From a virus: a DNA stretch of 64,000 bases. Under the pieces are notes generated by a model, which was given only the letters and a program-made list of their open reading frames with translations, made no database searches and was not told the DNA's origin. The translations under genes and the position numbers were made by a program. Shown here one piece after another: positions 36,974 to 52,199 of the stretch (within the stretch, counting starts at the first letter, position 1; each line of letters starts with the position of its first letter). The stretch lies in IMG/VR virus record IMGVR_UViG_3300045988_175028; one strand, written 5' to 3'.

Positions 36974-37876
36974 TTACTTTAGTCCGGTAGAACCGAAACC
37001 TCCATCAGCCCTTTCTGTATCTTCCATAACTTTATTTACCAAATAAAAATTAGCTTTAGGAACTTCGGCGAGGACTAACTGGGCAAATTTCTCACCCTTA
37101 TGAATATAATGGTCTGCGCCATGTAGGATGGAAGTAATAATAGGATGGCCATTATCATCAAATTCATAAGTAATATCTTGAATGGGGGCCTCCACATTTT
37201 CAATAATAACACAGACTTCTCCGCGGAACCCTGCGTCAATAGTTGCAGGAGTATTTGCGACTCTTAGCTTTGTTTTTAGACAACGACCACTTTTAGGACG
37301 GATTTGTAATTCATAACCATTAGGAATAGCAAATTTTAGACCAGTAGGAATTAGCTTTGTTTCTCCGGGATGGATAGTATAGTCTTCTAGTGCATATAAG
37401 TCCATTCCACTGTCATCTATATGTGCATATTCAGGCATCCGGACCCCTTTTCGGCACTTCTCATAAGGAATTTGGATATACTTTTTAGCAATTCCTTGAG
37501 TTTCACTGATGCAATTAGCTAATCCATTAGCCAGTTGCTTCAGAAAATCCTTCTTTTGGGCAGAGAAACCTTCTAATGTATCAATCTTTTGGCCTAATTG
37601 GGCAAAATTCTGAATCATATCCTCAACAGTAGCTCCATTAGCATTTATTGCTTGGGCAAAAAGCAAACGAGTATTTGCATTATTCAAACTTCGTAGGTAG
37701 CTATCTAAAACACCAGGAGCTAATAAAGCAAATTTATCTTCGGGAAGATTTAATAGCCCGCCAATTGCTTCAAGGGTATCTTCTTTACCAGAAAGTTCTC
37801 CTATTATAGAAGATAGTTGATGAACGTCTTCTTTGGTAATTTTTTTTTGGGTAGAAAAATCAAATATCTCAGCCAT
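36974..37876 (-). CDS. dut: dUTPase (trimeric type) fused to an uncharacterised N-terminal domain of about 140 aa
   Basis: dUTPase motifs DSGMDLYA, RPKSG, ATIDAGFRGEV, GEKFAQLVL and RADGGFGSTG all lie in the C-terminal 160 aa. Residues 1 to about 140 have no recognisable motif. Confidence 0.8.
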   Translation of the reverse strand: MAEIFDFSTQKKITKEDVHQLSSIIGELSGKEDTLEAIGGLLNLPEDKFALLAPGVLDSYLRSLNNANTRLLFAQAINANGATVEDMIQNFAQLGQKIDTLEGFSAQKKDFLKQLANGLANCISETQGIAKKYIQIPYEKCRKGVRMPEYAHIDDSGMDLYALEDYTIHPGETKLIPTGLKFAIPNGYELQIRPKSGRCLKTKLRVANTPATIDAGFRGEVCVIIENVEAPIQDITYEFDDNGHPIITSILHGADHYIHKGEKFAQLVLAEVPKANFYLVNKVMEDTERADGGFGSTGLK

Positions 37877-38093
37877 CTAATTCCTCCCACAACTCTCCAA
37901 AAATTTCAGTTATCTTGACGAGCCATAGCTCACCGATAATCTCACCTTTGGCCTTTTTTGTCTTATAGGTATATCCTGCTGAACCAATAGTAAATCCTTT
38001 CTCACGAGCATCCTTTCGATAATTTTCAATTACTTGCTTAGCTTCTTCTTCTGTAAAACAAATAATCTCTGTTGTTTCTTTATAAGTTCTCAT
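37869..38093 (-). CDS. hypothetical protein (74 aa)
   Basis: ORF overlapping the downstream start, packed in the operon. Confidence 0.45.
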   Translation of the reverse strand: MRTYKETTEIICFTEEEAKQVIENYRKDAREKGFTIGSAGYTYKTKKAKGEIIGELWLVKITEIFGELWEELDG

Positions 38094-38102
38094 ATACTCT
38101 CC

Positions 38103-38342
38103 TTAGTCTTTTACATCAATATTTAAAGAAGTAAGATTATTTTTATCAATTGATGTTGATGAATTGCTTGTAGTAATTGTAGAATAATAGTAAGGTGTGG
38201 TTGTAATATTAGAACCATAAGAAATAGTATAGCTATCTATTTTACCTTCATTATAAACTTCATTCAGTAGTTTTTGAAGCTCTTCTTTCGTAAATTCTAT
38301 CTTACCCTTTTCATTATGAGGGAATACTCTAATTTTAGTCAT
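38103..38342 (-). CDS. hypothetical protein (79 aa)
   Basis: ORF packed between neighbours, with an S/T/N-rich C-terminus. Confidence 0.4.
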   Translation of the reverse strand: MTKIRVFPHNEKGKIEFTKEELQKLLNEVYNEGKIDSYTISYGSNITTTPYYYSTITTSNSSTSIDKNNLTSLNIDVKD

Positions 38343-38943
38343 TATTACTCTCCTTCTGTGTTAATTCCATAAATCTTGGTAGCGTCTCAATCCAATTACA
38401 AATCATTTGCCAATCGGGTAGGCGATGATGACGTCGTTGCTGATAGATTGTTTTTAATTGCTGATAATTTGTTGTCATTCCGGCTGTTAGCTCAAAACCC
38501 ATTGGAATATTATAAAGAATTTCGATGTATTTTTCTTCCATAAGTTTTTGAATTTCTTTTGTTTTTTCTTTTAAAGCAGATAGTCTATTATATTCGTCAA
38601 TCTTTTCTTGGCAAATATCAATAATTCGTTTATCTACATAAGCATTACATTGCTTTCTTAGAGAGAATTTTACAGCCTTATGCATCTTGCTTTGACTTGA
38701 ATTAATCTCGAACCAATGATACCGTTCTGCTTGCATCCAGGCATTTTGGCTAATTGTTAAATCAAACTGGACAATAATTCCTTTTAGAGCGTTATCATGT
38801 CCCTGTCCAGTTGGACAAGTTAAACACGCCCTAATACCAGGAGTAAGCTCACTATTCAATTTTTCAATATCGATAGCCTTTGGATATTTAGCAGTTTTGA
38901 TTGCTCGTTCAAGACCATACACTTGGGTATTTTCAATTTTCAT
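38335..38943 (-). CDS. divergent ThyX-like (flavin-dependent thymidylate synthase fold) protein with a degenerate signature motif
   Basis: GHDNALKGIIVQFDLTISQNAWMQAERYHWFEINSSQSKMH aligns by eye to the ThyX block GHxSxLEHxxFTFxIxGxSRxxxxQLxRHRxxSxNExSxRY. The C-terminal TTNYQQLKTIYQQRRHHRLPDWQMI aligns to NxRxLxHFxxLRxxxxAQxEIR. The RHRxxS signature reads RYHWFE. Confidence 0.5.
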   Translation of the reverse strand: MKIENTQVYGLERAIKTAKYPKAIDIEKLNSELTPGIRACLTCPTGQGHDNALKGIIVQFDLTISQNAWMQAERYHWFEINSSQSKMHKAVKFSLRKQCNAYVDKRIIDICQEKIDEYNRLSALKEKTKEIQKLMEEKYIEILYNIPMGFELTAGMTTNYQQLKTIYQQRRHHRLPDWQMICNWIETLPRFMELTQKESNND

Positions 38944-39463
38944 TTTTTACCTCCCTAAAAATTAGGTCTTTTGGTAAAAAGTTTTTACAAATATAAATAC
39001 TAGCAAAAGCAACTCCTTTTACCATTTTTGTCATTTCTTTATCTTGATAAAAATTTATCCTTTTATCAAAAATAAGGGCTTGACAGTTCTTTAAATAAGG
39101 GAATCTTTTTTGTCCCTGAAGACTGGGTAAGGGCAATAAAATGGCAAAAGGTTTTCCTAACTCATCTAGTCTCTTTAGAATTTCATCTTTACAAGAAAAT
39201 GGAGGGTTAGAAATTATAATATCATACTTTGGAGGTTCAAAGAAAAAGAAATTTTCTCCATTATCAATATGAGAATAAATAACTTGAAAACCTTTTTCTT
39301 CAAAAATTTTGACATATGCACTATCTTTAGTATCAAAAGGGCACCAAATGATTTTTCCTTTTGGGAGAAATTCTAAAAGAGGCCTCACTGCTTCTACTGG
39401 AGTAAAATATTCATCAGATTGTTTATTCGTTTTCGCGGTTAGATATCCTTTATTCTGTCCCAT
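38933..39463 (-). CDS. amino-methyltransferase-like protein (NPPF motif; putative DNA N6-adenine methyltransferase)
   Basis: DEYFTP near the N-terminus and IIISNPPFS (motif IV). I prefer the ATG at 39463 (RBS GGAGG; the ATG overlaps the TAA of the upstream ORF) to the GTG at 39490. Confidence 0.55.
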   Translation of the reverse strand: MGQNKGYLTAKTNKQSDEYFTPVEAVRPLLEFLPKGKIIWCPFDTKDSAYVKIFEEKGFQVIYSHIDNGENFFFFEPPKYDIIISNPPFSCKDEILKRLDELGKPFAILLPLPSLQGQKRFPYLKNCQALIFDKRINFYQDKEMTKMVKGVAFASIYICKNFLPKDLIFREVKNEN

Positions 39464-39880
39464 TATACCTCCACAATTTGATAAGAACACCCATCAACAG
39501 AATTTATATATTGTAAAACATCTTCATATTCCGGTTTTTTAAACCAATCATTTAGGAGATAAATATAACTAACTTTTTCAATTCCTAAACTTTTGGCTAT
39601 TTTTCTATATTGCGAAATTTTGAAGGCACAGGTTTGAAGTTTTTCGTCAACAGAGCCAGCTACTTTTTGAAATTTCTTTTCATAAATTTTTAGCTCATCG
39701 TTTACTAGGTAAGCTTCATCAGGTAGAAGTTTCTTTGAAATAAGGCTCTTCCAATCAATTTTTAGTTCCTTTAGGTACTGATAAAGCTTATGCTTTGAAA
39801 GATCAATGCCTTCTTTCTTGGCACAACAAATCTTTTCCCCATTTCAGACCATTAGAAGTATCTCTCGGGGCATTAGTCAT
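39463..39880 (-). pseudogene. frame-broken ORF: 25-codon leader (ATG 39880, stop 39803-39805) plus a 126-codon +1-frame body (39843 down to TAA 39465-39463) with no start codon
   Basis: Good RBS (GAAGGA) and ATG at 39880. The long open frame is shifted +1 and has no ATG/GTG/TTG until its last codons. The overlap window contains G4 and A4 runs (plus strand CCCC 39837-39840, TTTT 39833-39836). The body's TAA overlaps the next gene's ATG, suggesting translational coupling. Confidence 0.5.
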
Positions 39881-39883
39881 TTT

Positions 39884-40300
39884 TTAAATCCTTCTTTCTT
39901 TTACAAAATCTCCATCTTCATCAATAAAATAAATATTTCTAATTCCCAAATCTTTTATCAATTTACTACACGCAGGACAAGGGCGAGAGCACGCTCTCTC
40001 ACCCGTTTTCAATTTTCTATAAGTGTAAATAGAAACATCTTTCCATTCTATCTCCTTCCCAATCAATGGAGACAAAGCTGAAATTTCTGCGTGTTCACAA
40101 GAATTGGAGTTTTTATAATCTTCAAAATTACGATACTTATTATAGTAAAATTGAAGAGGACGAGTTTTTGTAGAATTACAAGAAGCAGATAAAATTCTCT
40201 TCCCACTAACAACTACCGCGCCGACTCTTGCCCTATCAAAATTAGAAAGTCTACACATTTGTTTAGCGATATTGAAGAAACTTTTTTCTCTATGAGTCAT
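39884..40300 (-). CDS. dCMP (deoxycytidylate) deaminase
   Basis: Zinc-binding motifs CEHAEISAL (HAE) and PCPACSKLI (PCxxC). 138 aa. Confidence 0.8.
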   Translation of the reverse strand: MTHREKSFFNIAKQMCRLSNFDRARVGAVVVSGKRILSASCNSTKTRPLQFYYNKYRNFEDYKNSNSCEHAEISALSPLIGKEIEWKDVSIYTYRKLKTGERACSRPCPACSKLIKDLGIRNIYFIDEDGDFVKERRI

Positions 40301-40358
40301 TCTATCAGCTCATCCTTTCTTTTTACTATAATAAGTATATCATAAAATTATTCTTTTT

Positions 40359-41627
40359 TCAAATTTTTCTTTGGTCGAGCTCTCGTATAATCTTATCTAT
40401 ACTATGAGCGACTGCGATGAATTGAATTGCATTCCAACCTTTTGTAGTCATTGCCGCGCACCCAATTCGTAGGCCAGAAGCTTCCATAGGAGAGCGTTTT
40501 TCATTTGGAACACAATTTTTATTTAGGGTAATTTTGTGTTTATCAAGTTCTTCTTGGACCTCGCGACCTGTGAGATTAGGGAAGTTTTTTGTAAGGTCAA
40601 TTAGAAAAAGATGATTATCTGTTCCGTCTGTAATTACTTTATAGCCCATTGCTTTAAACTCATTACACATTATCCAGGTATTATAAAGAACTTGGAAGAT
40701 ATATTGCTTAAATTCCTGGGTTAAAGCTTCTTCTGCACAGACCGCTTTTCCTGCAATGATATGCATTAAAGGCCCTCCTTGGTTGGTCGGAAAGACAGCT
40801 CCGTCTACTTTCTTTGCCAGTCCTGGCTTACAAAAGATTAATCCTCCTCTCGGTCCACGCAAAGTTTTATGAGTGGTTGTAGTAATAATATCAGCTAGGC
40901 CAAAGGGAGAGGGGTGATGTCCAGCAGCAATAAGTCCCGCGATATGTGCTATATCAACCATAAAGTATGGGCGGTAATTATTCTTTCGTTCAACTAATTC
41001 TTCTAACTGAACTGCATCAATAATATTTTTTATTCTTTTAAAATCAATAATACGACTATATGCACTTGCCCCAGCGAGAACCATCTTCGGATGATAGTAT
41101 CGAAGTTTTTTTTCTAAATCTTCGTAGTCGATAAAACCATTTTCATCGACGCCGTACTCAACTCGATTATAAATTTTTCCACTAATACTAGCTGGGCCAC
41201 AATGCGAGAGATGGCTTCCATTTTCCAAGCTCATGGCTAATACTGTATCGCCGGGTTCCAATACTGCACAATATGCACTAAGATTTGCTTGCGTCCCACT
41301 ATGAGGTTGTACATTTACATGATAGTCAGTTTCAAAAACTTCTCTCCACTTGTCACAACAATACTCTTCAAGTTTATCTACTGTCTGACAGCCGCCATAA
41401 TATCGACCTTGACGGCCAGAATGGCGGTCAAGTTCCGGATACCCCTCGGCATATTTATTTGTTAAACAAGAGGCCATTGTTGCTCGAACAGCGTCACTAG
41501 GATAGTTTTCACTAGCGATGAGTTCGATATTTTCAGACTGACGCTGACTTTCTTCCAAAATTAATTCTGCTATAGTAGGAGAACTTTTTACTACATAATC
41601 ACAAACCGTTGTATCTAAAGAACTCAA
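40359..41627 (-). CDS. glyA: serine hydroxymethyltransferase
   Basis: ELIASENY near the N-terminus, PLP-lysine motif TTTTHKTLRGPRGG, and a typical length of 422 aa. Confidence 0.85.
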   Translation of the reverse strand: MSSLDTTVCDYVVKSSPTIAELILEESQRQSENIELIASENYPSDAVRATMASCLTNKYAEGYPELDRHSGRQGRYYGGCQTVDKLEEYCCDKWREVFETDYHVNVQPHSGTQANLSAYCAVLEPGDTVLAMSLENGSHLSHCGPASISGKIYNRVEYGVDENGFIDYEDLEKKLRYYHPKMVLAGASAYSRIIDFKRIKNIIDAVQLEELVERKNNYRPYFMVDIAHIAGLIAAGHHPSPFGLADIITTTTHKTLRGPRGGLIFCKPGLAKKVDGAVFPTNQGGPLMHIIAGKAVCAEEALTQEFKQYIFQVLYNTWIMCNEFKAMGYKVITDGTDNHLFLIDLTKNFPNLTGREVQEELDKHKITLNKNCVPNEKRSPMEASGLRIGCAAMTTKGWNAIQFIAVAHSIDKIIRELDQRKI

Positions 41628-41812
41628 CTTTCTTCCTCCTTTGCTTCTAAGTAGCCTTTCAGATGTTCATCTTTTAGAGCTTGTTGGATATTCTTCCAAG
41701 CATCTGGAAAAAGAGAACCAATCAAAAAACTAAAACTAATTTCTTCACCATCAAAATTCTCAATAACTTCTGAAATTTTTTGAAAGCGCTCTTTTGAAAC
41801 TGTCATTTCCAT
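41624..41812 (-). CDS. hypothetical protein (62 aa)
   Basis: Small acidic ORF between the RNR gene and glyA, overlapping the glyA start. Confidence 0.4.
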   Translation of the reverse strand: MEMTVSKERFQKISEVIENFDGEEISFSFLIGSLFPDAWKNIQQALKDEHLKGYLEAKEEES

Positions 41813-41824
41813 AACTAATTCTCC

Positions 41825-43639
41825 TTATCCACATCTGCTCCAACCACAAGATTTACATATGACGCATCCGCCCTCTTGTATAAGTTCAGAACCGCACTCT
41901 GGACACTTAGCGCCATTATCAGTCTCTGGATTGAATGGGGGTCTACTCTCAGAGGTTGATATTTGAGAATTGGAATCTGCCAAGGCAATAATTGAATTTC
42001 CTTTCTCAATTCTTTCCTTCATCTCCTTCCACATTTCCATAAGGGCATTACCTACCGCCATAGGACAGCAAGCGCCCTTTGAAGTATCATGCTTTGTAGC
42101 AGTCCGAGAAGCATAACTTGGACAGGCGCCAGTACTTTGAAGCTGGTCGGCAATATCTTCAATTTTTACGCCACCGCGACAAGCTAGGGAAATCATTCGA
42201 GAAAGACCAACCATAAAGTTAGCACATCCACCGGTACTTCCTTTATTTAGATAAATCTCCATCAGGTCTCCCGTCTGGGGATCAAACCAGGCAGTACAAT
42301 GGAGAGAACCACAACCAGTAGTTAGGCGTCGCTTCATTCCAATTAGATTATCAGAGCAGCTAATGATTTCTCCACGAGGTAAACCTTTTTCTTCTTCTTT
42401 TTCTTGAGAGCTGTCGGTCGTTAGAATTCCAAGTCGCTTACAGCCATTTCTAAAAACAGTAATACCCTTTAATCCTTCTTTCCAAGCATTTAGGTAAATC
42501 TCTTCAACATCCTCAATAGTTGCCTCTTCTGGAAGATTCACCGTACTACTAATAGAAGCATCAATATGTCTCTGCCAAGCTCCTTGCATTAGGACTCTAT
42601 TTAGAGGAGAAATTGTTGATGAAGTACAAAACCAATTAGGAAGTTCAGCTTCATCTTTTATTCCATGTTCATCCATATATTCTTTTACAATTGGAGTATA
42701 TACCTTATAATATTCGTCATGACCATGAAGAGATTCAGTTTTTCGAGTGTAGGAGTTAGCAAAAATTGGTTCGATTCCTCCACTAATCCCCAACATCGTA
42801 GAAATAGTACCAGTTGGCGCGATTGTCAGTAATTGACTATTACGAAGACCATAAGCTTCTATTGCTTCTCGTGTACTCTCACAAGTGTTATTTTTTAGAA
42901 AACCACTTTTTTGAACGCAAGATTTATAATTATCATAAGACCCATTATGCCCAGCAAGAAAAGCCGAAGTATATAAAGCTTGGTCAGCCATTACTAGGCC
43001 GATTCTTTCACATAAATGTCGAGCTTGTTCTGAGTCATAGGGAAGTTCCATTTTTATAAGCATATCTGCCAAACCCATAATTCCGAGACCTATCTGACGC
43101 CAATCTGCGACGGATTGCCTCTGTTCTCTTAATGGATGCAGAGGAAGCCCTTCTTCTAATACTTCATTTAAATAAATAATACCATGAGCTACCGTTTCAC
43201 CAAAATCGTCAAAATCAAACTCTTTATCTTTTACAAAAGCAGAGAGATTTATACTTGACAAGAGACAAGAACCTCCCGCAGGAAGGGGCTCCTCCGCACA
43301 AGGGTTGACTCCTGCATATTCAAAAGTATCATCAAACTCAAGTAGATTATAATTGGAAATAGTATCCCAAAAAAGAATTCCAGGTTCTCCCCAATCCCAA
43401 TTATTTTTACATAACTTTTCAAAAATCTCTCTAGCTTTAGCTGTTTTTGTGATAGTTTCGTTAGTTTCTGGACGAGTAAAAGACATTACCCAATCCTTAT
43501 CATTGATTACCGCTTCCATAAAATCATCAGTCACACGAACAGAAATATTCGCTTTAGTAACAGCATCCGGAGAAGTCTTTATATCAATAAAGTCTAAAAG
43601 GTCAGGATGATGGCAGTCTAAGCTAATCATTAATGCCCC
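41825..43639 (-). CDS. nrdJ: class II (B12-dependent) ribonucleotide reductase, exon 2
   Basis: Begins GALMISLDCHHPD, the continuation of the GRRGA motif. Active-site block NPCAEEPLPAGGSCLLSSINLS and a C-terminal zinc ribbon CPECGS...CVICKSC. Confidence 0.8.
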   Translation of the reverse strand, partial: GALMISLDCHHPDLLDFIDIKTSPDAVTKANISVRVTDDFMEAVINDKDWVMSFTRPETNETITKTAKAREIFEKLCKNNWDWGEPGILFWDTISNYNLLEFDDTFEYAGVNPCAEEPLPAGGSCLLSSINLSAFVKDKEFDFDDFGETVAHGIIYLNEVLEEGLPLHPLREQRQSVADWRQIGLGIMGLADMLIKMELPYDSEQARHLCERIGLVMADQALYTSAFLAGHNGSYDNYKSCVQKSGFLKNNTCESTREAIEAYGLRNSQLLTIAPTGTISTMLGISGGIEPIFANSYTRKTESLHGHDEYYKVYTPIVKEYMDEHGIKDEAELPNWFCTSSTISPLNRVLMQGAWQRHIDASISSTVNLPEEATIEDVEEIYLNAWKEGLKGITVFRNGCKRLGILTTDSSQEKEEEKGLPRGEIISCSDNLIGMKRRLTTGCGSLHCTAWFDPQTGDLMEIYLNKGSTGGCANFMVGLSRMISLACRGGVKIEDIADQLQSTGACPSYASRTATKHDTSKGACCPMAVGNALMEMWKEMKERIEKGNSIIALADSNSQISTSESRPPFNPETDNGAKCPECGSELIQEGGCVICKSCGWSRCG

Positions 43640-44626
43640 CAATATGGACTATATCTTATTTTATTTTGAAAATAAAACTCGGGCGCTACTGTGGTCTTAT
43701 TGTTTCCTCAACCACTAGTCTCTACACGTTCCATCAACTTCTTAGTTGAAATTGATAGCTTCGCTCGGGGTTGTTGGGCGTTCCCCGAATTCACCCAATT
43801 CAAGACGCAGGGCATTCGCTTTATTATATTTTCTTTTTAGAATAATAAAATTATCATCAGGATAAATAAAATTTAGAAATTTTAGTACATCTTTTTTATT
43901 GGCAAATTCTAAGACAAAACAATTTTCGTTTGCTTTTGGCCGAATAATTGTTGAAATGGCGCATTGTTTTAGTAAAATTTGTTGAATACCTGTTAAAACT
44001 TTTAATGATGAAGTAAAAGAAATTTTCTGCCAAATTCTGTTTCTATCTTTTCGTAGTCCCCAGGTCAAACACCCATCTCCATCAAAGAACCCTTGCACCA
44101 AATATCTTTCTAAATTTTTAGAGATAATTGGACAATGTTTATTTTCTTTTGAGGAACAATGTTTATTAAAATCAATAACCAAATCTGAATTGCCAATAGT
44201 GATTCTTGCTCGTGGAAATCGTCTTGCTTCTGGTTTATATGTTAAGTCTTCTCTATAATTAGCTCCAATATAATTAGCAATAAATTGTAATATTTCTTTA
44301 TCATCTAAGCAACATCCAAATTCGATAGAATTATTATTGATGTATCCATCTGCTAACGCATATCCAATAATGTAAGCTTTTTTTGGAGTATCAATTTTAT
44401 TGAACATCTTTGGGTCTTTGTATTTGGGCTTAGCATATTTAGACTTATCATTTAATTTATATTTACTAATCCAATAGCCAACTGTTGACTTACTTTTTCC
44501 AGTAAGTTGAGCAATTTCACGATGAGTTAATCCATCTTCTAAATATTTTTCTAATAATTCTTTATTCATTTAAGAAGCCTCCTACTCTATATATTTTCGA
44601 AAACTTATAATTTATTAAGCGATTTT
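43640..44626 (-). mobile_element. group I intron (about 987 nt) in nrdJ carrying a LAGLIDADG homing endonuclease ORF
   Basis: Exon 1 ends ...GQAGRR (cgt, last nucleotide U at 44627). The intron ends in G (43640). The join restores GRR|GALM in frame. The minus strand carries TAAGATATAGTCC (43655-43643), matching the group I J8/7-P7 consensus. I could not identify a convincing P1/IGS pairing by eye. Confidence 0.7.
43742..44569 (-). CDS. LAGLIDADG homing endonuclease (double-motif) with an N-terminal HTH
   Basis: YIIGYALADGYI and LVQGFFDGDGCL motifs. N-terminal HTH REIAQLTGKSKSTVGYWISK. Own RBS AGGAGG. Confidence 0.8.
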   Translation of the reverse strand: MNKELLEKYLEDGLTHREIAQLTGKSKSTVGYWISKYKLNDKSKYAKPKYKDPKMFNKIDTPKKAYIIGYALADGYINNNSIEFGCCLDDKEILQFIANYIGANYREDLTYKPEARRFPRARITIGNSDLVIDFNKHCSSKENKHCPIISKNLERYLVQGFFDGDGCLTWGLRKDRNRIWQKISFTSSLKVLTGIQQILLKQCAISTIIRPKANENCFVLEFANKKDVLKFLNFIYPDDNFIILKRKYNKANALRLELGEFGERPTTPSEAINFN

Positions 44627-45070
44627 ACGTCTTCCGGCTTGACCAATCTCTTCAGTCGTTTGGCTATATCCCTGCATAAAACTTACCGCGCCGGTGGTTT
44701 GTTCTGCTTGATTATGAACCTTTGCTCCTGCGGGGGCTAATTTAGAAAGGTCAATTCCACAGCCACCACCATAAGAATAAGTTCGAGCTAATTTTTTGCG
44801 ACTTTCAAAAATAGATTCGATATTATCTTCTGGAGGAGTAATAACATAACAATTACTATAAGTTACTCGTGTATCAGTGATTCCCCGATTGCTAAGAATT
44901 CGTCCGCCAGGAATGAACTTTTTTTCAATAATTAGTGCTTTTATTGCTTCATTATTTCCACTAACTCTATCTAACCATTTATCAAATGATTCTTCGTTTT
45001 TACGGTATTTTCTCATCCAAATATCAATACCAAGCAAGTTATCTTTTCCTAGCCATTGCTCTACTGTCAT
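44627..45070 (-). CDS. nrdJ: class II ribonucleotide reductase, exon 1
   Basis: FIPGGRILSNRG, SNCYV, YSYGGGCGIDLSKLAPAGAKV, GAVSFMQGY and GQAGRR match the N-terminal conserved blocks of NrdJ. Confidence 0.8.
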
Positions 45071-45261: not shown

Positions 45262-46399
45262 TTATAATTTTCCTCCCATCAAAAATTACTTTTCTCCATT
45301 CATAAAACATTCTAAAGGCTTCATAGTTATTGAATCTAACATATTGAAAAGCATCCCTGGCTTCTTGGGTAGAAGGCCATCTTCGCTGATATTTTGCTCG
45401 CCAGCATTTCCAAGGATCTTGATGTTTAGCTATCCATTTACAATAATCAACGATTCTATCTGCTTTATAATTATAGTATTTTGACCTTATAAACCAATTC
45501 AAGACTTCAAAAAGATTTTGTAATTCAGGAGTTGTGATTAGTGTGTCATTATATATAAGTGAAATTTTTATCCAATGTCTATGGAAAAATAGAACTTGAG
45601 GAAGAATTAAAGGCAAGCGATTCATCAAAAAGTCATTCTCATCCTTACAACCTTCATCAACTTTATAAGACATTTGACTTGTTCCTAAATCCCATAAGTA
45701 TCTCATTTTATCACATAAGACGTCATCCATAAAATTATTATATTGTATTCCAAAAACATCTTCCATAATAGGTAGTCGTAACCATTTTAGTAGTTCTTCC
45801 TCCGAAGATACCTGTATAGGAAATTTAGTTCCAAGTGAATATGGTTTTACAGTATTGCTATTTAGATTATTCCGAGAATACAACCAGTCTTTTATAAAAT
45901 CATAAGCGCCATCAACAGCACCAGCATCGTAATCGTGAAGAATAAGACATCTTGTGTTTTGAAACATATAGTCTTCTTTTTTTAGCCAAGGGTCTATATT
46001 TTTCCCATCAATTGAAAGACGAATATGCGCGCTCCATAAAATTCTCTTGAAAAGGCGCGCATCATCCTTTATACGGCAAAAATTAGGAGAATGACGCTCA
46101 TAGATTGAAAAATCAGGAATAGTTTGTTCGATTTCAAGAGGAAGAGGTTTATATGGACCTGGCTGTATCGCACGCCCTCCAAGAATTATCTTATCATCAA
46201 ATAACTCTCGTGGATAAATTCCATCATCATAATCTTTTCTTACATAAAGAGTAGAGAAGCGTTCTGGCGCCAACTCTGGTGCCAGAACGGAAATTTCTCT
46301 TTTTTTCTTATGATAAGCACAAAGTTTCGCACATTCAAGATTAGGGAGGACATTTTGGTAAGTAAAAAAATCGTAATCATGTACTCCAATTATTCCCAT
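45248..46399 (-). CDS. hypothetical protein (383 aa)
   Basis: Long ORF translationally coupled (TAATG) to dnaE exon 2. W/Y/F-rich with no motif recognised. Confidence 0.55.
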   Translation of the reverse strand: MGIIGVHDYDFFTYQNVLPNLECAKLCAYHKKKREISVLAPELAPERFSTLYVRKDYDDGIYPRELFDDKIILGGRAIQPGPYKPLPLEIEQTIPDFSIYERHSPNFCRIKDDARLFKRILWSAHIRLSIDGKNIDPWLKKEDYMFQNTRCLILHDYDAGAVDGAYDFIKDWLYSRNNLNSNTVKPYSLGTKFPIQVSSEEELLKWLRLPIMEDVFGIQYNNFMDDVLCDKMRYLWDLGTSQMSYKVDEGCKDENDFLMNRLPLILPQVLFFHRHWIKISLIYNDTLITTPELQNLFEVLNWFIRSKYYNYKADRIVDYCKWIAKHQDPWKCWRAKYQRRWPSTQEARDAFQYVRFNNYEAFRMFYEWRKVIFDGRKIINDSN

Positions 46400-47862
46400 T
46401 ACTGTTCAATCCTCCCTTGACTTTCTACTGTGCCGTCTTTGTTTATTTTTGTGATTAGCTCAATGCCATGATAAGGAGTATTCTTATATTTTTTCATAAC
46501 GAATTCGTTATCTCTCCTGATGCCTGTAATAATAATTTTGTTTCCTCTACTGAAGATACTTTTTTCAATGACGTGTTTTTTGCCATCGGCACCCCGTTCG
46601 CTAATTTGTTTGTCATAATAAGAAAAGACTTCACCAAAAACTCTTACATTTACGACTCCCTCTCTAGTCAAAACCGTTACCATTTTTTTGCTCTTATCTC
46701 TATCAAGAACAGTACCACAAATGCGATGAATCTTAAAAAGTGGGATTTTCTTTCCTTTTATTTCAATTATTCTATCAATTTCAGGCTGTTCGTTTAGTTC
46801 AAAGAAGTTTGAAAAACCACATAGTCGATAATTGACATCTTGAAGTTCGTGCTGATGAAAATAACAAGAAACGCTGTCCATCTCCCATTTACTAATAGAC
46901 CCAAGACAATATTTATTCCAAACATCAGACATTAGCCTATTATTTACATCATTTAGTAATAATTGGTTATTATCTTTTATGAAAGGACGAATAATATCCA
47001 TCTGAGCTTTATAAATTTTATCCCACTTGGTTTGAGGAATCGCAAATCCACTTTCAGTGTCATAAGGTTCTAGAAAATCAACATCAAAATTCTTTTCATA
47101 AAAGTTCATTGTGATGTTATCTAATCCATAATACTGAGTTCCTACTTTCATCTTTTTTAGATATTTATTGAAATTGAAGACCCGTCTTTGAAGGTCATAC
47201 TCATCAGGAATCAAACCAAAATCAATCAACATCTTCATATTTTGGAGAGTTATCCGTTTTTTCGTATCACTGATTTCTGAGACATAATATTGCATTAAAC
47301 TCTCTCTATTACTAAATTCATCAAAAGCACCAGCTTTTATAAGATTTATCATTTGAGGCTTGTTGATTTTTACTTTTGAGAGAAAATCATCAATTGAGGA
47401 GTAGGGGCGATTTTCAATTATTGATTTTACAATATCTTCGCCTACTTTTACAATTCCGCTCATACCAAAACGAATTATTGACTTTTCTACATCGGGAGAG
47501 AAAGTATAGGTAGATTTGTTTATATCTGGCGGCGCGACATCAATTCCCGACATCTTCATTTTTCCAATGGCAGAGCTAATTTTTCCATAATTTGTGGTTT
47601 TAGTTTTTTTCTTTTTCTTTTTCTCTTTTACGACTTCTTCATCATCTTCATCATCGTCGTTATCATCCTCAAATTCTTCTATACAATCAACATAAGTTTC
47701 TTCAATAGTATCATCTTCCTCGTCTTCTTCTACTCCTTCATTTCCTCCACTATCGCTAATAAGACAAGCGCAATTCCAAAAAATAATCGGAAATTGATAG
47801 GCTAAATTCATTTCTTGAAGAGCGATTAGCGAATAAGCCAAGGTATGTGATGCATTCTTTAC
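46399..47862 (-). CDS. dnaE: DNA polymerase III alpha (DnaE-type), exon 2
   Basis: Starts (V)KNASHTLAYSLIALQ, which continues the conserved GYGFNKSHxxAY motif. Downstream regions are HhH-like and OB-like. There is no independent RBS. Confidence 0.75.
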   Translation of the reverse strand, partial: VKNASHTLAYSLIALQEMNLAYQFPIIFWNCACLISDSGGNEGVEEDEEDDTIEETYVDCIEEFEDDNDDDEDDEEVVKEKKKKKKTKTTNYGKISSAIGKMKMSGIDVAPPDINKSTYTFSPDVEKSIIRFGMSGIVKVGEDIVKSIIENRPYSSIDDFLSKVKINKPQMINLIKAGAFDEFSNRESLMQYYVSEISDTKKRITLQNMKMLIDFGLIPDEYDLQRRVFNFNKYLKKMKVGTQYYGLDNITMNFYEKNFDVDFLEPYDTESGFAIPQTKWDKIYKAQMDIIRPFIKDNNQLLLNDVNNRLMSDVWNKYCLGSISKWEMDSVSCYFHQHELQDVNYRLCGFSNFFELNEQPEIDRIIEIKGKKIPLFKIHRICGTVLDRDKSKKMVTVLTREGVVNVRVFGEVFSYYDKQISERGADGKKHVIEKSIFSRGNKIIITGIRRDNEFVMKKYKNTPYHGIELITKINKDGTVESQGRIEQ

Positions 47863-48968
47863 CACTCATGGTTTCCCATGCCGATTAAATCGTTGTGGTC
47901 TGGACTATACCATCATCCTTATCTAATAAGGCGTCACTATTATAGTCTCTGAACGTCTTTCTTAAATAATTATACTTTCTATTCATTCCAAAAGGTCTAT
48001 TATAAACAATTGCGATTAACTTTAATATATTATACTGATTTGCAGTTTCAATTCTATACAAACCGCTTTCAGACATTCTAATTGCGATATCATCCATGAA
48101 GAAATTATTTTTTAACACTTCTGTAATCCACATGGCAAAATCTTTAGACATCGTGCATATATAAAATTGCGCGCCGCCATAGGAAGTTTTAGAAACACAA
48201 CCATCACCGTCAATTATTCCTCGAATAATATAAGGTAAAAATTGTTTTTCTTCATCAAGAAGTTTTGGCGTTGGCAGAATAATTGATTTATTTGGAACAA
48301 TACCAAAACGTTCAACTTGTTTTGATATGCCAGGTATTGTAATTAAAACTCTATACCTGGTTTTGTGGATTCCATCATTATAACTTTTATAGTCAGTGCC
48401 AATCGTTTTTGCCACAAAGCTTATCGCGTCTTCGTCTGTCATATCTAATCCTAATCCATCTCTATCACTTAACACATATCCATCTGTTAGTAATAAACCA
48501 ACAAAATAAGCATCAAATGGAGAAGTTAATTTTTCTAAGGAGTAAACATAACCCCTGCGACTGTTTTGTGCCTCTTTTATTATTTCTTCATAATTCTCTG
48601 GATAATATTTTTTTACTTTGTCCGTTATTGATTTTTTGGTTTTATAACCATACTTATTCATTAGTTCTATAACGGAGGTCCCTTGTTTATATTCTTCAAC
48701 CAATTGTAGTTCTTGTTCTTTGGATAATTTTTTATATCCCATTGTATCTCACCTCTAATTATAAGTAACCTTTGAGATGAGAAAGCATATCATTTTAAGA
48801 AATTTCGCTGCGGATTATCCAATCTTTAATAATTTTACCATACCCGCACTTTTTCTGCGCGGCCGCTATATACGTTACCGTTACAGTTTGGTTATTAAAG
48901 CTCTAAGGAACTTCCCGCAATTTAAGTGATTTTTAACTATATGTTACCATATAGGGCTTCAATATTCT
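47863..48968 (-). mobile_element. group I intron (about 1.1 kb) in dnaE carrying a LAGLIDADG homing endonuclease ORF
   Basis: The 5' exon ends GGCUUU (...GYGF). Eight nt into the intron, GAAGCC can pair with it and gives the canonical terminal U-G wobble (P1). AAATTGCGGGAAG (48923-48911) resembles Tetrahymena P4. GATGGTATAGTCC (47914-47902) matches the J8/7-P7 consensus. The intron ends in G (47863). Boundaries are good to about +/-3 nt. Confidence 0.75.
47885..48742 (-). CDS. LAGLIDADG homing endonuclease (intron-encoded)
   Basis: YFVGLLLTDGYV and IIRGIIDGDGCV motifs. Own RBS GAGGTGA. The 3' end of the ORF overlaps the intron P7-like core sequence. Confidence 0.8.
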   Translation of the reverse strand: MGYKKLSKEQELQLVEEYKQGTSVIELMNKYGYKTKKSITDKVKKYYPENYEEIIKEAQNSRRGYVYSLEKLTSPFDAYFVGLLLTDGYVLSDRDGLGLDMTDEDAISFVAKTIGTDYKSYNDGIHKTRYRVLITIPGISKQVERFGIVPNKSIILPTPKLLDEEKQFLPYIIRGIIDGDGCVSKTSYGGAQFYICTMSKDFAMWITEVLKNNFFMDDIAIRMSESGLYRIETANQYNILKLIAIVYNRPFGMNRKYNYLRKTFRDYNSDALLDKDDGIVQTTTI

Positions 48969-51488
48969 AAAGCCATAACCTTTACTCGTACAAACTAACA
49001 CATTCCAAACATACTTACAGAATTTTTCATCCAATCCTTTTTCTTTTATAATCCTGAAATATTCATCTTGTAATTCAAGAAAAGCTTTAGGATTTTTCTT
49101 TGCGATAGATTTTCTTAGCTTATCTGCCCAGGTAAGGCTGAAGCCTCCGCACTCAGGCAACTGAACTAACTCCATAAATTTTTCCTGAGACTCACAGATA
49201 CCATAAGAAATCTTTACTACTGGCTCAAGAATTTTCATTTCTTCTTTGGTAAGACCGTAATTCTCCATTTCTTTATACCACAAAGAAATATCATTTTTGA
49301 AACGAGCAAACTTATTTAGAGGTTGCTCGGCTCCTTTTTCTTGAGCCATCAAACGAATTACAGAATTCAAAACAGCCAAGTCATCTACTGATTGAGGATG
49401 AGTTAGCGCGATGCCACTAATTCCACTTTGCTTTTCCATTTGGAATAAGCTGGTGATTTTATGGTCCCATACCATCTTCCACATATCCGGTGCTGTTCGT
49501 TCTAAATTATAAATACCAATAACGCTTTCGTAGGTTTCTTTTAGAGTATCTTTCTTTTTAACATATCCATAATCAACTAGTAAATCTAGACAGTTATGAA
49601 TTTTATCCAACGCTTCTACTGATAATAAATCATACTTGATAAGTGATACATCCTCACACGCATGAAGGTCAAAAGCCGTAATGATGGTTCCATCTGGCGC
49701 GCGCATGAGTCCGGTTGAATTAGTAAAAGGTTCATCCACAAAGATTACTCCACCAGCATGGATTCCATACCCACAAATTAGTCCTTCAATTTTTTGAGCG
49801 ACTTCCCAAACTTCAGGATAATTCTCTGTCATTTCATATACAAATTGTTTGATTGGCTTCCAATCATTTTCAGTATCACCATACATACATTGAGATAAGG
49901 TTCGTAGCAATCCACGGTCAGAGGGAATCAATGAGGCTAGATAAGAAGCAATATCAACATCCACTCCCAAACCACGACAAGCCGTAAGAATTGCAGATTT
50001 AGACTTTTCTTGACGAAAAGTGGCAACATTTGAAACTCGATTATCTCCATAGACTTTTCGTAAATGATTTAGGACTTCTGCACGCCGGCCACCCTCAATA
50101 TCTACATCTACATCAAGTACTGAAACTCGATCTGGATTCAGAAATCTCCATCTAAAAGTTTTGGTAGTCTCTTGTAGAGGATTGATTTGAGTTATATTCA
50201 AAAGATAAAGTAGAATAAAACCTACTCCTGAACCTCTTCCTGGTCCAACCAACGTACCAGCTTTCCAACATTCCTCAATAATTCTTTGAAGATTTAGATA
50301 ATAGGCTGACCAATGTGCTTTATTTACATTAGAAGAAATCCATGTCATTTCAAGACAAGCATTGACCTCATCCCAAGTCTTTTGATTCCATAATTCTTGA
50401 GGCCCATCTTCTAGTGCCTCAACAATCATGCAAGCCAAAGCTCTATCACCTATATAATCAGACTCCACGAATGTTTTCAGATAAGGAATTCTTTCTATCC
50501 AACAATTTTGAACATAACTAATTTTAGGTTCTTTCCAAGGAAGCTGAGGAATATATAAAGGCTTTAGAAGACTATAATCCTCACACATATCTTTTATTTT
50601 TAGGATATTCCTATATGCTATTTGTAATTGCTCTTGTGAAAAATATCCAAAATAACTTTCGAGTTCTTCGGTATCCATTAGATAAGTCGTGGCATAGAAA
50701 TCATCTACTTCTCTATCACCATTCTGGGCATTTAGATAAGCTTTATGAATTGTTCTGTCTTCTTTCTTGAGATAGTGTGTATCCGTTGTGATAATATAAG
50801 GAATTTCAAACTCATTCGATAACTCAAAAAGTTTTTTATTGACGTAAATTTGGTCTTTATTATTACTGGGTTGCATTTCAAAAAAGAAATTTCCATGGCC
50901 AAATAAATTATCCATTTGGCTTATCCAGTTATAGATTTTTGGCATCAATTCTGGATTATCTTTTGCTTTTAGAAGTTGAGTGGGGAGACACCCTCCAAGG
51001 CAGGCTGTCGAGCCAATTACATGACCAGGTTCTGCGCCAATAATTTCAAATAAGTCATTATAATAAGTCGGAACTCGACGCATTCCTCGCGCCATATAAC
51101 TTCTCAACCAAGCGCGAGTAGAAATTTCACGAATCTGCTTATGACCAATAGCATCTTTGGCTAATAAGATAAAGTGATAGTATTTATCTTGTCCAGCTTT
51201 ATAATTTGAAGCATTGAGTCCATTTCGACAAAGGTAAATTTCATTTCCCTGAATGACTTTAAAGTTAGGATGCTTTTCTTTTATTTTTTTATAATATTTT
51301 TCAATTCTAACAGCTCCAGAGATACAATCGTGGTTAGTAATGGCTACCACTTCATGTCCCAGCTCAATGGCATAATCAATTAGGTCTTCAACTTTTATAA
51401 TACAATCGCGCAGTCGAAGATTTGAGGTCTCATCATGATTATGAATTAACTAATGTAAACTACCAGGATAATCCAGGATAGTTTTCAT
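48969..51488 (-). CDS. dnaE: DNA polymerase III alpha (DnaE-type), exon 1, with an in-frame TAG at codon 13
   Basis: RBS AGAGGTGA plus ATG at 51488, giving MKTILDYPGSLH-TAG-LIHNHDETSNLRLRDC...VAITNHD. PHP motifs HxH and (A)ITNHD lie on either side of the track's GTG start at 51350. Polymerase core blocks follow, up to ...TSKGYGF. Confidence 0.7.
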
Positions 51489-51494
51489 TTTTCA

Positions 51495-52199
51495 TCACCT
51501 CTTTCTAAATTCATCACGAACATTGGCTTTATAATTATGTAAATATTTCCAAGTTCTACATCTATTTATATCATATAGTATATTTAAACTAATATTCTCA
51601 TCTCTTGATATTTGAGCTAATGAACGAGAGTCTTTTTCCAATAAGGCTATTATATATTTCGCTTTTTCTTCAGTAATTTTATTAGTTCCTAATTCACCCC
51701 GGCGAACGCTTCCTTGACTTTCTATTCTTATATTTTTCTTATAATGATGAAACCAAATCCAAGTATTGCATCTATTGATATCACTAATAGTATTATAATG
51801 AACCTTATACTGCCTTGCTATTTCTTGTATAGATAATTTTGTATTTTTTAATTTTTCGATAATCTCAAGGACTTCTTTTTCAGTAAGTTTCGCCCAAGGA
51901 TTTTCTTCACTTTTATACTCTTCTCCACCACGAGTTAAATTATATCCTTTTTCTCTTGAAGAATAACTTTTATAATATTCTATCCAATACTTTTCTCTTT
52001 CTTGCAATTCTTGAGGTTCACATTCTTCTATCACTTCAAAAGTAAAATCTTCTTCTCCTAATTTATGAAGTTCTTGGTCAAAATAAGAATATGGTGATGG
52101 CTGATTTAGATGAGCCCATTTTCTTTTTGTAATATCAGTACTTCTCCCTATATATATTTTGTTGTTTTGTTTATTTGTATATTTATATATACCTACCAT
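51495..52199 (-). CDS. GIY-YIG homing endonuclease (free-standing), with two C-terminal HTH repeats
   Basis: GIYKYTNKQNNKIYIGRS...R...H motif. Two repeats, KLTEKEVLEIIEKL...IARQYKVHYNTISDINRCNTW and KITEEKAKYIIALL...ISRDENISLNILYDINRCRTW. Confidence 0.8.
   Translation of the reverse strand: MVGIYKYTNKQNNKIYIGRSTDITKRKWAHLNQPSPYSYFDQELHKLGEEDFTFEVIEECEPQELQEREKYWIEYYKSYSSREKGYNLTRGGEEYKSEENPWAKLTEKEVLEIIEKLKNTKLSIQEIARQYKVHYNTISDINRCNTWIWFHHYKKNIRIESQGSVRRGELGTNKITEEKAKYIIALLEKDSRSLAQISRDENISLNILYDINRCRTWKYLHNYKANVRDEFRKR

Follow-up and report, generated by a model that had tools for sequence, protein, structure and literature searches.

The DNA examined here is a 64,000-nucleotide stretch of a virus (IMG/VR record IMGVR_UViG_3300045988_175028), referred to below as the window, in which positions 36,974 to 45,070 hold a compact set of minus-strand genes for deoxynucleotide metabolism. 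The set encodes a dUTPase, a ThyX-like protein, a small methyltransferase with an NPPF motif, a deoxycytidylate (dCMP) deaminase-family protein, serine hydroxymethyltransferase (SHMT) and a ribonucleotide reductase (RNR). All six genes had been named in an original prediction, and searches with Pfam, NCBIfam and PHROG profiles recovered each of them on the minus strand at the predicted coordinates (Table 1). Since curated models agree with that prediction for SHMT, dUTPase, deaminase and RNR, the observation is confirmed, and the module is a deoxynucleotide-supply unit of a phage, largely as described. The main result concerns the ThyX-like protein. It belongs to a large family of hypothetical proteins with a predicted ThyX fold and is probably a very divergent thymidylate synthase that would use flavin and 5,10-methylenetetrahydrofolate (CH2-THF).

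In the SHMT, the match to PF00464 extends over profile positions 3-398 of 399, and the lysine motif that binds pyridoxal phosphate (PLP), TTTTHKTLRGPRGG, is present. Enzymes of this type convert serine and tetrahydrofolate (THF) to glycine and CH2-THF. The dUTPase domain, which in other enzymes converts dUTP to dUMP and pyrophosphate, occupies residues ~125-300 and contains an internal insertion, as a result of which PF00692 is matched in two stretches. The N-terminal ~125 residues of this protein match no family and are conserved in 14 related loci. The deaminase carries both dCMP deaminase motifs, CEHAE (HAE) and PCPAC (PCxxC). Its only match among PDB sequences was the deoxycytidylate deaminase 4p9c (E 4e-7), and none of the NCBIfam equivalogs was reached (ComEB 19 bits, 219 required). 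The enzyme presumably converts dCMP to dUMP; related phage deaminases prefer 5-methyl-dCTP (5mdCTP; bioRxiv 10.1101/2024.12.05.627091). The RNR was predicted to be B12-type, and the spliced 752-amino-acid nrdJ product passes the equivalog model TIGR02504 NrdJ_Z for class II (adenosylcobalamin) enzymes with 497.8 bits (cut-off 399.95) and ends in a TSCPD domain. The gene itself is not continuous, being split by a probable group I intron of 987 nt.

Between and around these genes lie small open reading frames (ORFs) of 62, 79 and 74 codons, which are conserved across the clade and match no family. The 62-codon ORF had phmmer matches in 12 of 94 scanned sequences, including that of a relative without SHMT (L056), and by the same method the 79-codon ORF was found after the ThyX-like gene also in the more distant SHMT-ThyX-like-dUTPase loci L133 and L139. 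A RuvC-like gene is the next gene after the dUTPase in the direction of transcription. The proposed single minus-strand operon is plausible: the genes of the region are co-directional and tightly packed, while terminator-like sites were not enriched in it (9 found, 5.9 ± 2.8 expected from shuffled sequences). An Rfam scan of the window returned nothing at the gathering score and a tRNA search of the window found none.

The owner of the module is an SPbeta-like human-gut phage of ~111 kb. The plus strand of the window from position 1 to ~36000 is the structural half and the minus strand from 36235 to 64000 the half for replication and nucleotide metabolism. The phage collection held no near-identical record and no close isolated phage was matched. 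Two contigs of 111.5 kb and 143 kb, both from human gut samples, overlap the window at 100% identity, over 14.1 kb at one end and 11.5 kb at the other. Their genes include the SPbeta-family Pfam domains YonG_N, YonD_N, YonB, YorF and YorH, and they also encode DNA polymerase III alpha (pol III alpha), RecJ, DnaB, primase and gyrase A and B. The readable part of the phage consists of the window and 18 kb of flanks, ~82 of ~111.5 kb. The predicted lack of a dihydrofolate reductase (DHFR) holds for this part, in which a single-sequence FolA search, of limited sensitivity, found none.

Table 1. Features of the module in the window, listed in the direction of transcription.
Feature	Coordinates	Strand	Evidence and remarks
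nrdJ exon 1	44627..45070	-	N-terminal 148 codons, ends ...GQAGRR; PF02867 52 bits; exon ends cgt
Probable group I intron, 987 nt	43640..44626	-	interrupts nrdJ at GRR/GALM; RF00028 48.4 bits, E 5.6e-11
LAGLIDADG homing endonuclease ORF, 275 aa, within intron	43742..44569	-	PF14528 37.8 bits; phrog_4645 endonuclease E 6.6e-30
nrdJ exon 2, barrel and C-terminal TSCPD domain	41825..43639	-	PF02867 284.5 bits; PF12637 48.8 bits
62-aa ORF between nrdJ and SHMT	41624..41812	-	no family match
SHMT (GlyA), 422 aa	40359..41627	-	PF00464 434.6 bits; NF000586 486.8 bits (cut-off 335)
dCMP deaminase-family zinc deaminase, 138 aa	39884..40300	-	PF00383 46.7 bits (cut-off 25); phrog_174
Inserted cassette, ~934 nt (start-less open frame 39466-39843 and small methyltransferase)	38943..39876	-	absent in five close relatives
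N6-adenine-type DNA methyltransferase-like protein, NPPF motif, 176 aa	38933..39463 (ORF to 39490)	-	phrog_799 E 6.5e-36
ThyX-fold protein, 202 aa	38335..38943	-	phrog_6721 E 4e-48 ('unknown function'); Pfam Thy1 19.8 bits
79-aa ORF after ThyX-like gene	38103..38342	-	no family match
74-aa ORF	37869..38093	-	no family match; kept across clade
dUTPase, 300 aa, with N-terminal ~125-aa extension	36974..37876	-	PF00692 65 bits (cut-off 22); NF001862 129.9 bits (cut-off 103); phrog_135 E 1.8e-50

A divergent family with a predicted ThyX fold

The ThyX-like protein of the window corresponds to DAX21340.1 and was found on 135 contigs. With the Pfam Thy1 profile (PF02511) it scored 19.8 bits (E 7e-4), below the cut-off of 24.8, and among 64 diverse family members searched alone 7 matched this profile at E <= 0.01, the best with E 1.7e-6. 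The family is large: one search returned 2,884 representatives of clusters formed at 90% identity, and a second search gave 2,688 clusters at the 50% level. All named copies are annotated as 'hypothetical protein', including the RefSeq entries WP_426709913.1 and WP_313069956.1, and a literature search, with incomplete coverage of the literature, found no prior description of the family.

The structure of the protein was modeled with AlphaFold from an alignment of the 64 representatives, which gave a pLDDT of 96.7 and a pTM of 0.88. An earlier model from a shallow alignment of 28 sequences (pLDDT 64) was discarded, though it already pointed to ThyX. Foldseek comparison of the model with the PDB gave 149 matches at E <= 1e-3, and the best 50 were all ThyX. 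The top match was H. pylori ThyX (3ah5, E 2.5e-7, TM-score 0.63-0.69); matches overall had a probability of 1.0, TM-scores of 0.55-0.69 and sequence identities of 12-17%. In the BFVD database the best two structural matches were uncharacterised phage proteins and most of those following were annotated phage ThyX proteins. The modeling thus indicates that the ThyX-like protein has a ThyX fold.

To locate the active site, the family was aligned to T. maritima ThyX and column counts were made over the 64 members; the resulting residue map agrees with the order of secondary-structure elements. Five polar residues of ThyX have clear counterparts, namely H53 in H49 (61/64), R78 in R74 (63/64), N163 in N159 (62/64), R174 in R170 (63/64) and H178 in H173 (62/64). 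R174 is the uracil-activating arginine of ThyX. In the active-site loop S88 probably corresponds to S85, which is invariant, and Y91 probably to H88, a position with His in 58 and Tyr in 4 of the 64 members; the occurrence of Tyr suggests that H88 replaces Y91. Because profile-profile probabilities from hhalign were low, both against T. maritima ThyX alone and against a profile of four ThyX sequences, the alignment serves as a guide only and the mapping in the loop is uncertain by 1-3 positions. Known roles in ThyX are stabilisation of the reduced flavin for R78 and stacking against folate and flavin for H53, and S88 and Y91 are conserved catalytic residues of the active-site loop (PMC11940539). 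Compared to the ThyX signature RHRxxSxxxxSxRY (R78-H79-R80 ... S88-x-R90-Y91), the family motif reads Q-R74-Y75-H76 ... S-S-Q-S85-x-M87-H88-[RK], so that only the initial Arg and one Ser of the signature persist. As judged from these alignments, the family fails the sequence definition of ThyX yet appears to keep a recognisable active-site core.

Many family members are much longer, with 400-470 residues (P0139, P0194, P0198, P0199, P0218 and P0225), and were considered as fusions that could give a functional clue. This was rejected, as the extra part is an HNH endonuclease insertion or a helix-turn-helix (HTH) domain. The HNH_3 endonuclease ORFs are inserted in frame near residues 42-46, at a conserved GSGHD motif, and could be arranged like inteins or like introns that are read through. 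Insertion at conserved sites in genes for important enzymes is typical of homing endonucleases.

Neighbouring genes in phages and bacteria

The gene company of the family in phages was examined in 92 loci, composed of the best 80 of 504 IMG/VR relatives and those collected earlier, which form 33 lineages at 70% identity. A dUTPase gene occurred in 51 of the 92 loci, always on the same strand as the ThyX-like gene (51/51), nearly always downstream of it (49/51) and in 28 cases within 1.5 kb. Counted by lineage, the same-strand neighbours within 4 kb were NrdD (15 of 33), dUTPase (12), NrdH-like protein (9), pol III alpha (8) and NrdG (7). In 9 lineages the ThyX-like gene is directly followed by one for a guanylate-kinase-like protein, and dNMP kinase and NT5C nucleotidase genes are found nearby in 6 lineages each; these kinase and nucleotidase families were confirmed with Pfam.

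None of the 92 phage loci contained ThyA, canonical ThyX or FolA. The ThyA search was sensitive enough to detect phage ThyA proteins of 28% and 25% identity at E 3e-24 and 6.5e-14. ThyA occurs in 4,525 of 50,697 phage records, in several of the listed ones overlapping an annotated DHFR gene. The model for canonical ThyX found true ThyX proteins at SHMT loci. In two complete genomes that carry the ThyX-like gene, those of phiCD211 (131.7 kb, with dUTPase, guanylate kinase and NrdDG) and XP41-N3 (38.6 kb), no other thymidylate synthase or DHFR was found. The presence of dUMP-producing and folate genes and the absence of other synthases suggest that the family fits the niche of a thymidylate synthase.

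A scan of bacteria with one genome per species yielded 252 relatives, of which the best 80 were analysed at the level of the locus. These were mostly from Bacillota (uncultured Bacilli, Erysipelotrichaceae, Coprobacillus and Lachnospiraceae), with a Cetobacterium in addition. The family motifs were intact in all 80 proteins, and those copies for which names were looked up were all called 'hypothetical protein'. In 65 of the 80 species the gene that immediately precedes the ThyX-like gene, in the same orientation, is folD, and the two frames abut or overlap. The identity of folD was supported by PF00763 (115.5 bits) and PF02882 (119.9 bits). The pair is surrounded by housekeeping genes, namely prfB, uvrB, secG and genes for an M29 aminopeptidase, YitT and a DinB-type polymerase, and the contigs are up to 1.3 Mb long for the copy from Coprobacillus sp. 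CAG:826 (L220, 4193-5573). Thymidylate synthases take their carbon from 5,10-methylene-THF, which is interconverted by FolD, and the linkage hints at the use of CH2-THF; it is the strongest single hint that the family would do so in a core role.

The kinase and nucleotidase genes beside the family in 9, 6 and 6 phage lineages, together with the remodelled active-site loop (R90/Y91 to M/H, RHR to RYH, R147 and R165 lost), would also suit an enzyme with other pyrimidine C5 chemistry, for example hydroxymethylation of dUMP or methylation or hydroxymethylation of dCMP, that leads to a non-canonical DNA base. For a divergent Thy1-family protein of Bacillus phage SP-15, a function as hydroxymethyl-dUMP synthase has been hypothesised (PMC5977210). 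Furthermore, of virome contigs with modified cytosine 70% have a dCMP-deaminase gene within 3 kb of a homologue of ThyA-type thymidylate synthase, compared with 6% of the unmodified contigs (bioRxiv 10.1101/2024.12.05.627091). In such a scheme, SHMT would supply the carbon and the neighbouring deaminase would act on a modified cytosine nucleotide, a role that we find hard to credit in this phage. A hypermodifying enzyme is unlikely to reside, with the same motifs, in the housekeeping folD operon of 65 bacterial species, and the family is also present in a 38.6-kb phage without other nucleotide-modifying genes. Its constant partner is dUTPase, and dCMP deaminase is found near it in only 1 of the 33 lineages. 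In the window, genes for hypermodification such as those for a glycosyltransferase or a DNA-level kinase were not found. We thus consider a modified base an unlikely outcome of the pathway, and it is equally doubtful that gut SPbeta-like phages carry a non-canonical pyrimidine (e.g., 5-hydroxymethyl-dUMP or C5-modified dCMP) made by an enzyme of the ThyX type instead of the ThyA type. Synthesis of dTMP by the ThyX-fold protein fits these data better.

Homologues of the phage SHMT are abundant among phages. The original prediction called a phage-encoded SHMT uncommon, which does not agree with at least 590 relatives in IMG/VR contigs and with its annotation in T4-like Aeromonas phages. The SHMT proteins are 75-100% identical within the clade of the phage and 57-79% in a wider phage clade. 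In more than 13 relatives with 75-99% identical SHMT the gene order 62-codon ORF, SHMT, dCMP deaminase, ThyX-like gene, 79-codon ORF, 74-codon ORF, dUTPase and RuvC-like gene is maintained. A relative with the same backbone (L056) has neither SHMT nor deaminase, and relatives with a 68-74% identical ThyX-like protein have only an RNR (class II or III), a small ORF, the ThyX-like gene and dUTPase. Because these phages keep the backbone without them, SHMT and dCMP deaminase are an accessory block of one sub-clade.

SHMT is a universal cellular gene and some database matches labeled as phage are plainly fragments of host genomes (Listeria, Staphylococcus and E. coli), which raises the possibility that glyA was recently acquired from a host and travels in the module as a passenger without a functional link to it. 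This is very improbable. The closest 120 of 8,000 scored homologues are 66-100% identical to the phage enzyme and none has a source name; many are located on contigs of 40-160 kb, and the three contigs inspected for gene content were phage-like. Identity to sequences of Listeria, Staphylococcus and Enterococcus in the phage collection is only ~47-49%. The position of the gene between the 62-codon ORF and the dCMP deaminase is constant in more than 13 phages, and in a 95%-identical relative (L004) an HNH endonuclease ORF has inserted into the SHMT gene. A recent, unconserved host passenger, which the original prediction had named as an outcome that would speak against it, is thereby largely refuted, as SHMT is conserved in the phage clade.

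The neighbours of SHMT were surveyed in 82 phage SHMT loci, which form 43 lineages at 80% identity. In 13 of these lineages a gene of the ThyX superfamily is present within 3 kb on the same strand, belonging to the ThyX-like family in 4, to canonical ThyX in 4 and to a third family with weak Thy1 similarity in 5. Within 10 kb of SHMT, the ThyX-like family was found in 10 of the 82 loci (4 lineages) and canonical ThyX in 4, with Thy1 scores of 247 bits in L140 and 145 bits in L147, and with direct adjacency in L147 and L150. No ThyA or FolA was detected within 10 kb of SHMT in any of the 82 loci. Seen from the other side, SHMT is an accessory of the ThyX-like gene and is absent from 30 of the 33 ThyX-like lineages.

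The third family consists of a protein of 208 residues with a weak Thy1 match (E 1.2e-3), encoded downstream of SHMT and dUTPase at L174:11613-12564 and in 4 other SHMT lineages. It is accompanied by a DUF1599 'nucleotide modification associated domain 1' protein and could be yet another divergent enzyme of the ThyX type, perhaps with a link to base modification. On a 159-kb contig of another large phage (L012:10001-15048) SHMT is followed by a 143-codon ORF and genes for a class-V aminotransferase, a 3D-domain protein, dCMP deaminase and an HD-domain protein, and this locus has no thymidylate-synthase-like gene within 10 kb.

In about 60 of the 82 phage SHMT loci, nothing like a thymidylate synthase gene is encoded within 10 kb, so the role of SHMT is not limited to thymidylate synthesis, and since SHMT is missing near the gene in 30 of the 33 ThyX-like lineages, the pairing is not obligatory. 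Such a distribution would also be expected if SHMT were a general auxiliary metabolic gene that raises glycine and one-carbon supply to host pathways, the host made the dTMP, and the ThyX-fold protein were another flavoprotein, a nucleotide-binding protein or a regulatory protein. The failure of the protein with all curated ThyX models and the loss of several substrate-binding arginines are in line with this. We nevertheless regard it as rather unlikely, because the conserved polar residues map onto the flavin, folate and uracil site of ThyX and because synteny persists with dUTPase, RNR and NMP kinases in phages and with folD in bacteria. No alternative thymidylate synthase was present in 254 loci or in the two complete phage genomes, and the repeated insertion of homing endonucleases at the GSGHD motif is typical of genes for essential enzymes.

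Mobile insertions in the module

The boundaries of insertions in the module were obtained from an alignment with five close relatives (L004, L011, L014, L015 and L017). In nrdJ, the sequence is uninterrupted at the exact intron site in L014, L015 and L017 and interrupted in L011. Removal of the intron joins the exons in frame to GRR/GALMISL, identical to the uninterrupted gene of L015. The insertion has a U before the 5' splice site, a terminal G and an internal endonuclease ORF, and its Rfam score (RF00028) of 48.4 bits over the full model length is just below the gathering score of 50.

Similar elements interrupt other genes. The pol III alpha gene of the window (48933-51350 and 46399-47865, minus strand) is split by a 1.1-kb insertion at 47857-48967 with a second LAGLIDADG ORF (47885-48742); its group I score is weak (24.4 bits, E 9e-4), and the genes of L014 and L017 are uninterrupted. 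A free-standing GIY-YIG endonuclease ORF with HTH domains is located between RecJ and pol III alpha (51495-52199, minus strand). The relatives have endonucleases at other sites, a GIY-YIG enzyme in pol III alpha of L011 and a LAGLIDADG enzyme in an AAA_24 gene of L095. The interrupted SHMT gene of L004 (7456-9540) is split by a NUMOD4/HNH_3 endonuclease ORF at a site equivalent to window position ~40784-40788.

The NPPF methyltransferase was listed in the original prediction as part of the module, and it was considered as a folate-pathway enzyme. This was rejected: the cassette at 38943-39876 is missing in the five relatives, where the deaminase stop abuts the ThyX-like start, except that L014 has another cassette at the same junction (L014:8171-9960), composed of a 202-codon ORF and a gene for an Eco57I-type N6-adenine methylase of 392 residues. 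Because the cassette is missing in relatives and replaced in L014, the methyltransferase is a DNA-methylase moron outside the pathway, and both it and the intron endonuclease are mobile insertions. The two-gene cassette of L014 may be a restriction-modification or orphan-methylase unit.

The methyltransferase also matches EcoRI_methylase weakly. Its likely start is the ATG at 39463, preceded by a GGAGG ribosome-binding site, which gives a protein of 176 residues. Upstream of it, an open frame of 126 codons (39466-39843, minus strand) has no ATG, GTG or TTG start and its stop overlaps the methyltransferase ATG. A 25-codon ORF in another frame precedes it. The open frame may be a frameshifted cassette gene. 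In the distant locus L066 (5911-7148), a methyltransferase homologue of 176 residues (38% identity) lies directly upstream of a gene for a 49% identical ThyX-like protein, and the cassette there has no homologue of the 126-codon frame. This adjacency, although the five nearest relatives lack it, could reflect an insertion hot spot or a functional link.

A putative folate cycle without dihydrofolate reductase

The pathway that would result from these genes starts with NrdJ, which after self-splicing of the intron would make deoxyribonucleotides. The dCMP deaminase and dUTPase would both yield dUMP, which the ThyX-fold protein is proposed to convert with CH2-THF and a reductant to dTMP and THF. 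The phage SHMT could then recharge THF with a one-carbon unit from serine. No DHFR would be needed, because the ThyX-fold step would release THF and SHMT would recharge it. The conserved backbone consists of RNR, the small ORF, the ThyX-like gene and dUTPase, and SHMT and the deaminase would together act as a booster block that a single sub-clade has gained. The biochemical logic, put forward in the original prediction, is established: ThyX releases THF, so that SHMT alone closes the cycle without DHFR (PMC6294363), and the comparative neighbour data fit it. We consider it probable that the ThyX-fold protein is a highly divergent flavin- and CH2-THF-dependent thymidylate synthase which operates in such a cycle with SHMT. 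Gene identities, the fold, synteny, insertion boundaries and the exclusivity of the family are the observations described above; the use of FAD and folate and the formation of dTMP are what we infer from them.

A number of points weigh against this assignment. None of the curated ThyX models is passed by the protein (19.8 bits with Pfam where 24.8 is required, no NCBIfam match), two family profiles searched against PDB sequences found no ThyX, and the profile-profile probabilities mentioned above are low. In the signature, RHR reads R-Y-H, with H79 replaced by an invariant Tyr and R80 by His in 42 of 64 members, and R90 is replaced by Met. Equivalents of R90, R147, R165 and E86 were not found in the family alignment; the three arginines are dUMP-phosphate- and FAD-binding residues of ThyX. 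The 65 species with linked folD form one cluster at 70% identity, which means that the linkage amounts to one evolutionary event with long retention, possibly through inheritance and not through selection. The absence of another thymidylate synthase or DHFR covers the examined loci in the bacteria and ~82 of ~111.5 kb in the phage.

Compared to ThyX (PF02511; T. maritima TM0449, H. pylori 3ah5), the family has the same predicted fold, a similar length of ~200 residues, equivalents of H53, R78, N163, R174 and H178 along with the loop serine, and a similar company of nucleotide and folate genes. It differs in its low identity (12-17%), its score below the gathering threshold, R-Y-H in place of RHR, M-H in place of R90/Y91 and the lack of R147 and R165. 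The pairing with SHMT resembles the ThyX-SHMT cycle of H. pylori (PMC6294363) in that a ThyX-type enzyme occurs with SHMT and without DHFR or ThyA in the readable sequence. In contrast to H. pylori, the genes here are phage-encoded accessories to a host with its own folate enzymes, the ThyX member is divergent, and the absence of DHFR refers to ~82 of ~111 kb.

Phage modules with a related design are known from SPbeta, which has bnrdEF with introns and an intein and the dUTPase gene yosS, and from T4, in which td-frd, cd and nrd occur and group I introns are found. Relatives of SPbeta carry introns and an intein in RNR genes, and phi3T carries the ThyA-type thymidylate synthase thyP3 (PMC8270828). 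The phage described here shares with them the SPbeta-like backbone, an RNR gene into which a probable group I intron and its homing endonuclease have inserted, and dUTPase and RuvC-like genes nearby. It has a class II NrdJ where they have class Ib NrdEF, a ThyX-fold protein where they have the ThyA-type thyP3 or td, and SHMT where they have DHFR.

Phage SP-15 likewise encodes a divergent ThyX-fold protein in a Bacillota phage (gp130; PMC5977210). The SP-15 'Thymidylate synthetase' A0A127AWA5 was a weak structural match to our model (E 0.054), and no sequence similarity of gp130 to the ThyX-like protein was seen in tblastn matches. SP-15 has a second, ordinary ThyX and hypermodified DNA, whereas here the divergent gene is the sole one in the readable sequence and its family is also chromosomal in bacteria. 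The deaminase and ThyA pairs of phages with 5-methylcytosine (5mC) or 5-hydroxymethylcytosine (5hmC) (bioRxiv 10.1101/2024.12.05.627091) are similar in having a deaminase-family gene beside a thymidylate-synthase-like gene. Those enzymes are ThyA homologues with Asp at the N177 position, whereas the protein described here has a predicted ThyX fold, dUTPase is present and the deaminase is restricted to one sub-clade.

What is new in these results is a large, unannotated family with a predicted ThyX fold and divergent motifs; the logic of the module itself was already known. Strong evidence from gene context points to members of this family as the enzymes that make thymidylate in many gut phages and in one clade of gut Bacilli. 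If the protein is a working thymidylate synthase, 'hypothetical' proteins in ~2,700 clusters at 50% identity, on hundreds of gut phage contigs and in at least 65 bacterial species would gain a core function, and the apparent thymidylate gap in genomes that carry the family would be closed. The RHR...SxRY signature would then not be required for ThyX chemistry, which bears on the mechanism and on antimicrobials that target ThyX. In the phage samples examined SHMT was found beside synthases of the flavin type and never beside ThyA or DHFR, which would then be a natural illustration of a folate cycle free of DHFR. Should a modified base be made instead, an enzyme of the ThyX type would for the first time be known to lead to DNA hypermodification. 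With a functional synthase, the phages are predicted to continue making dTMP when dihydrofolate reduction in the host is blocked, for example by trimethoprim.

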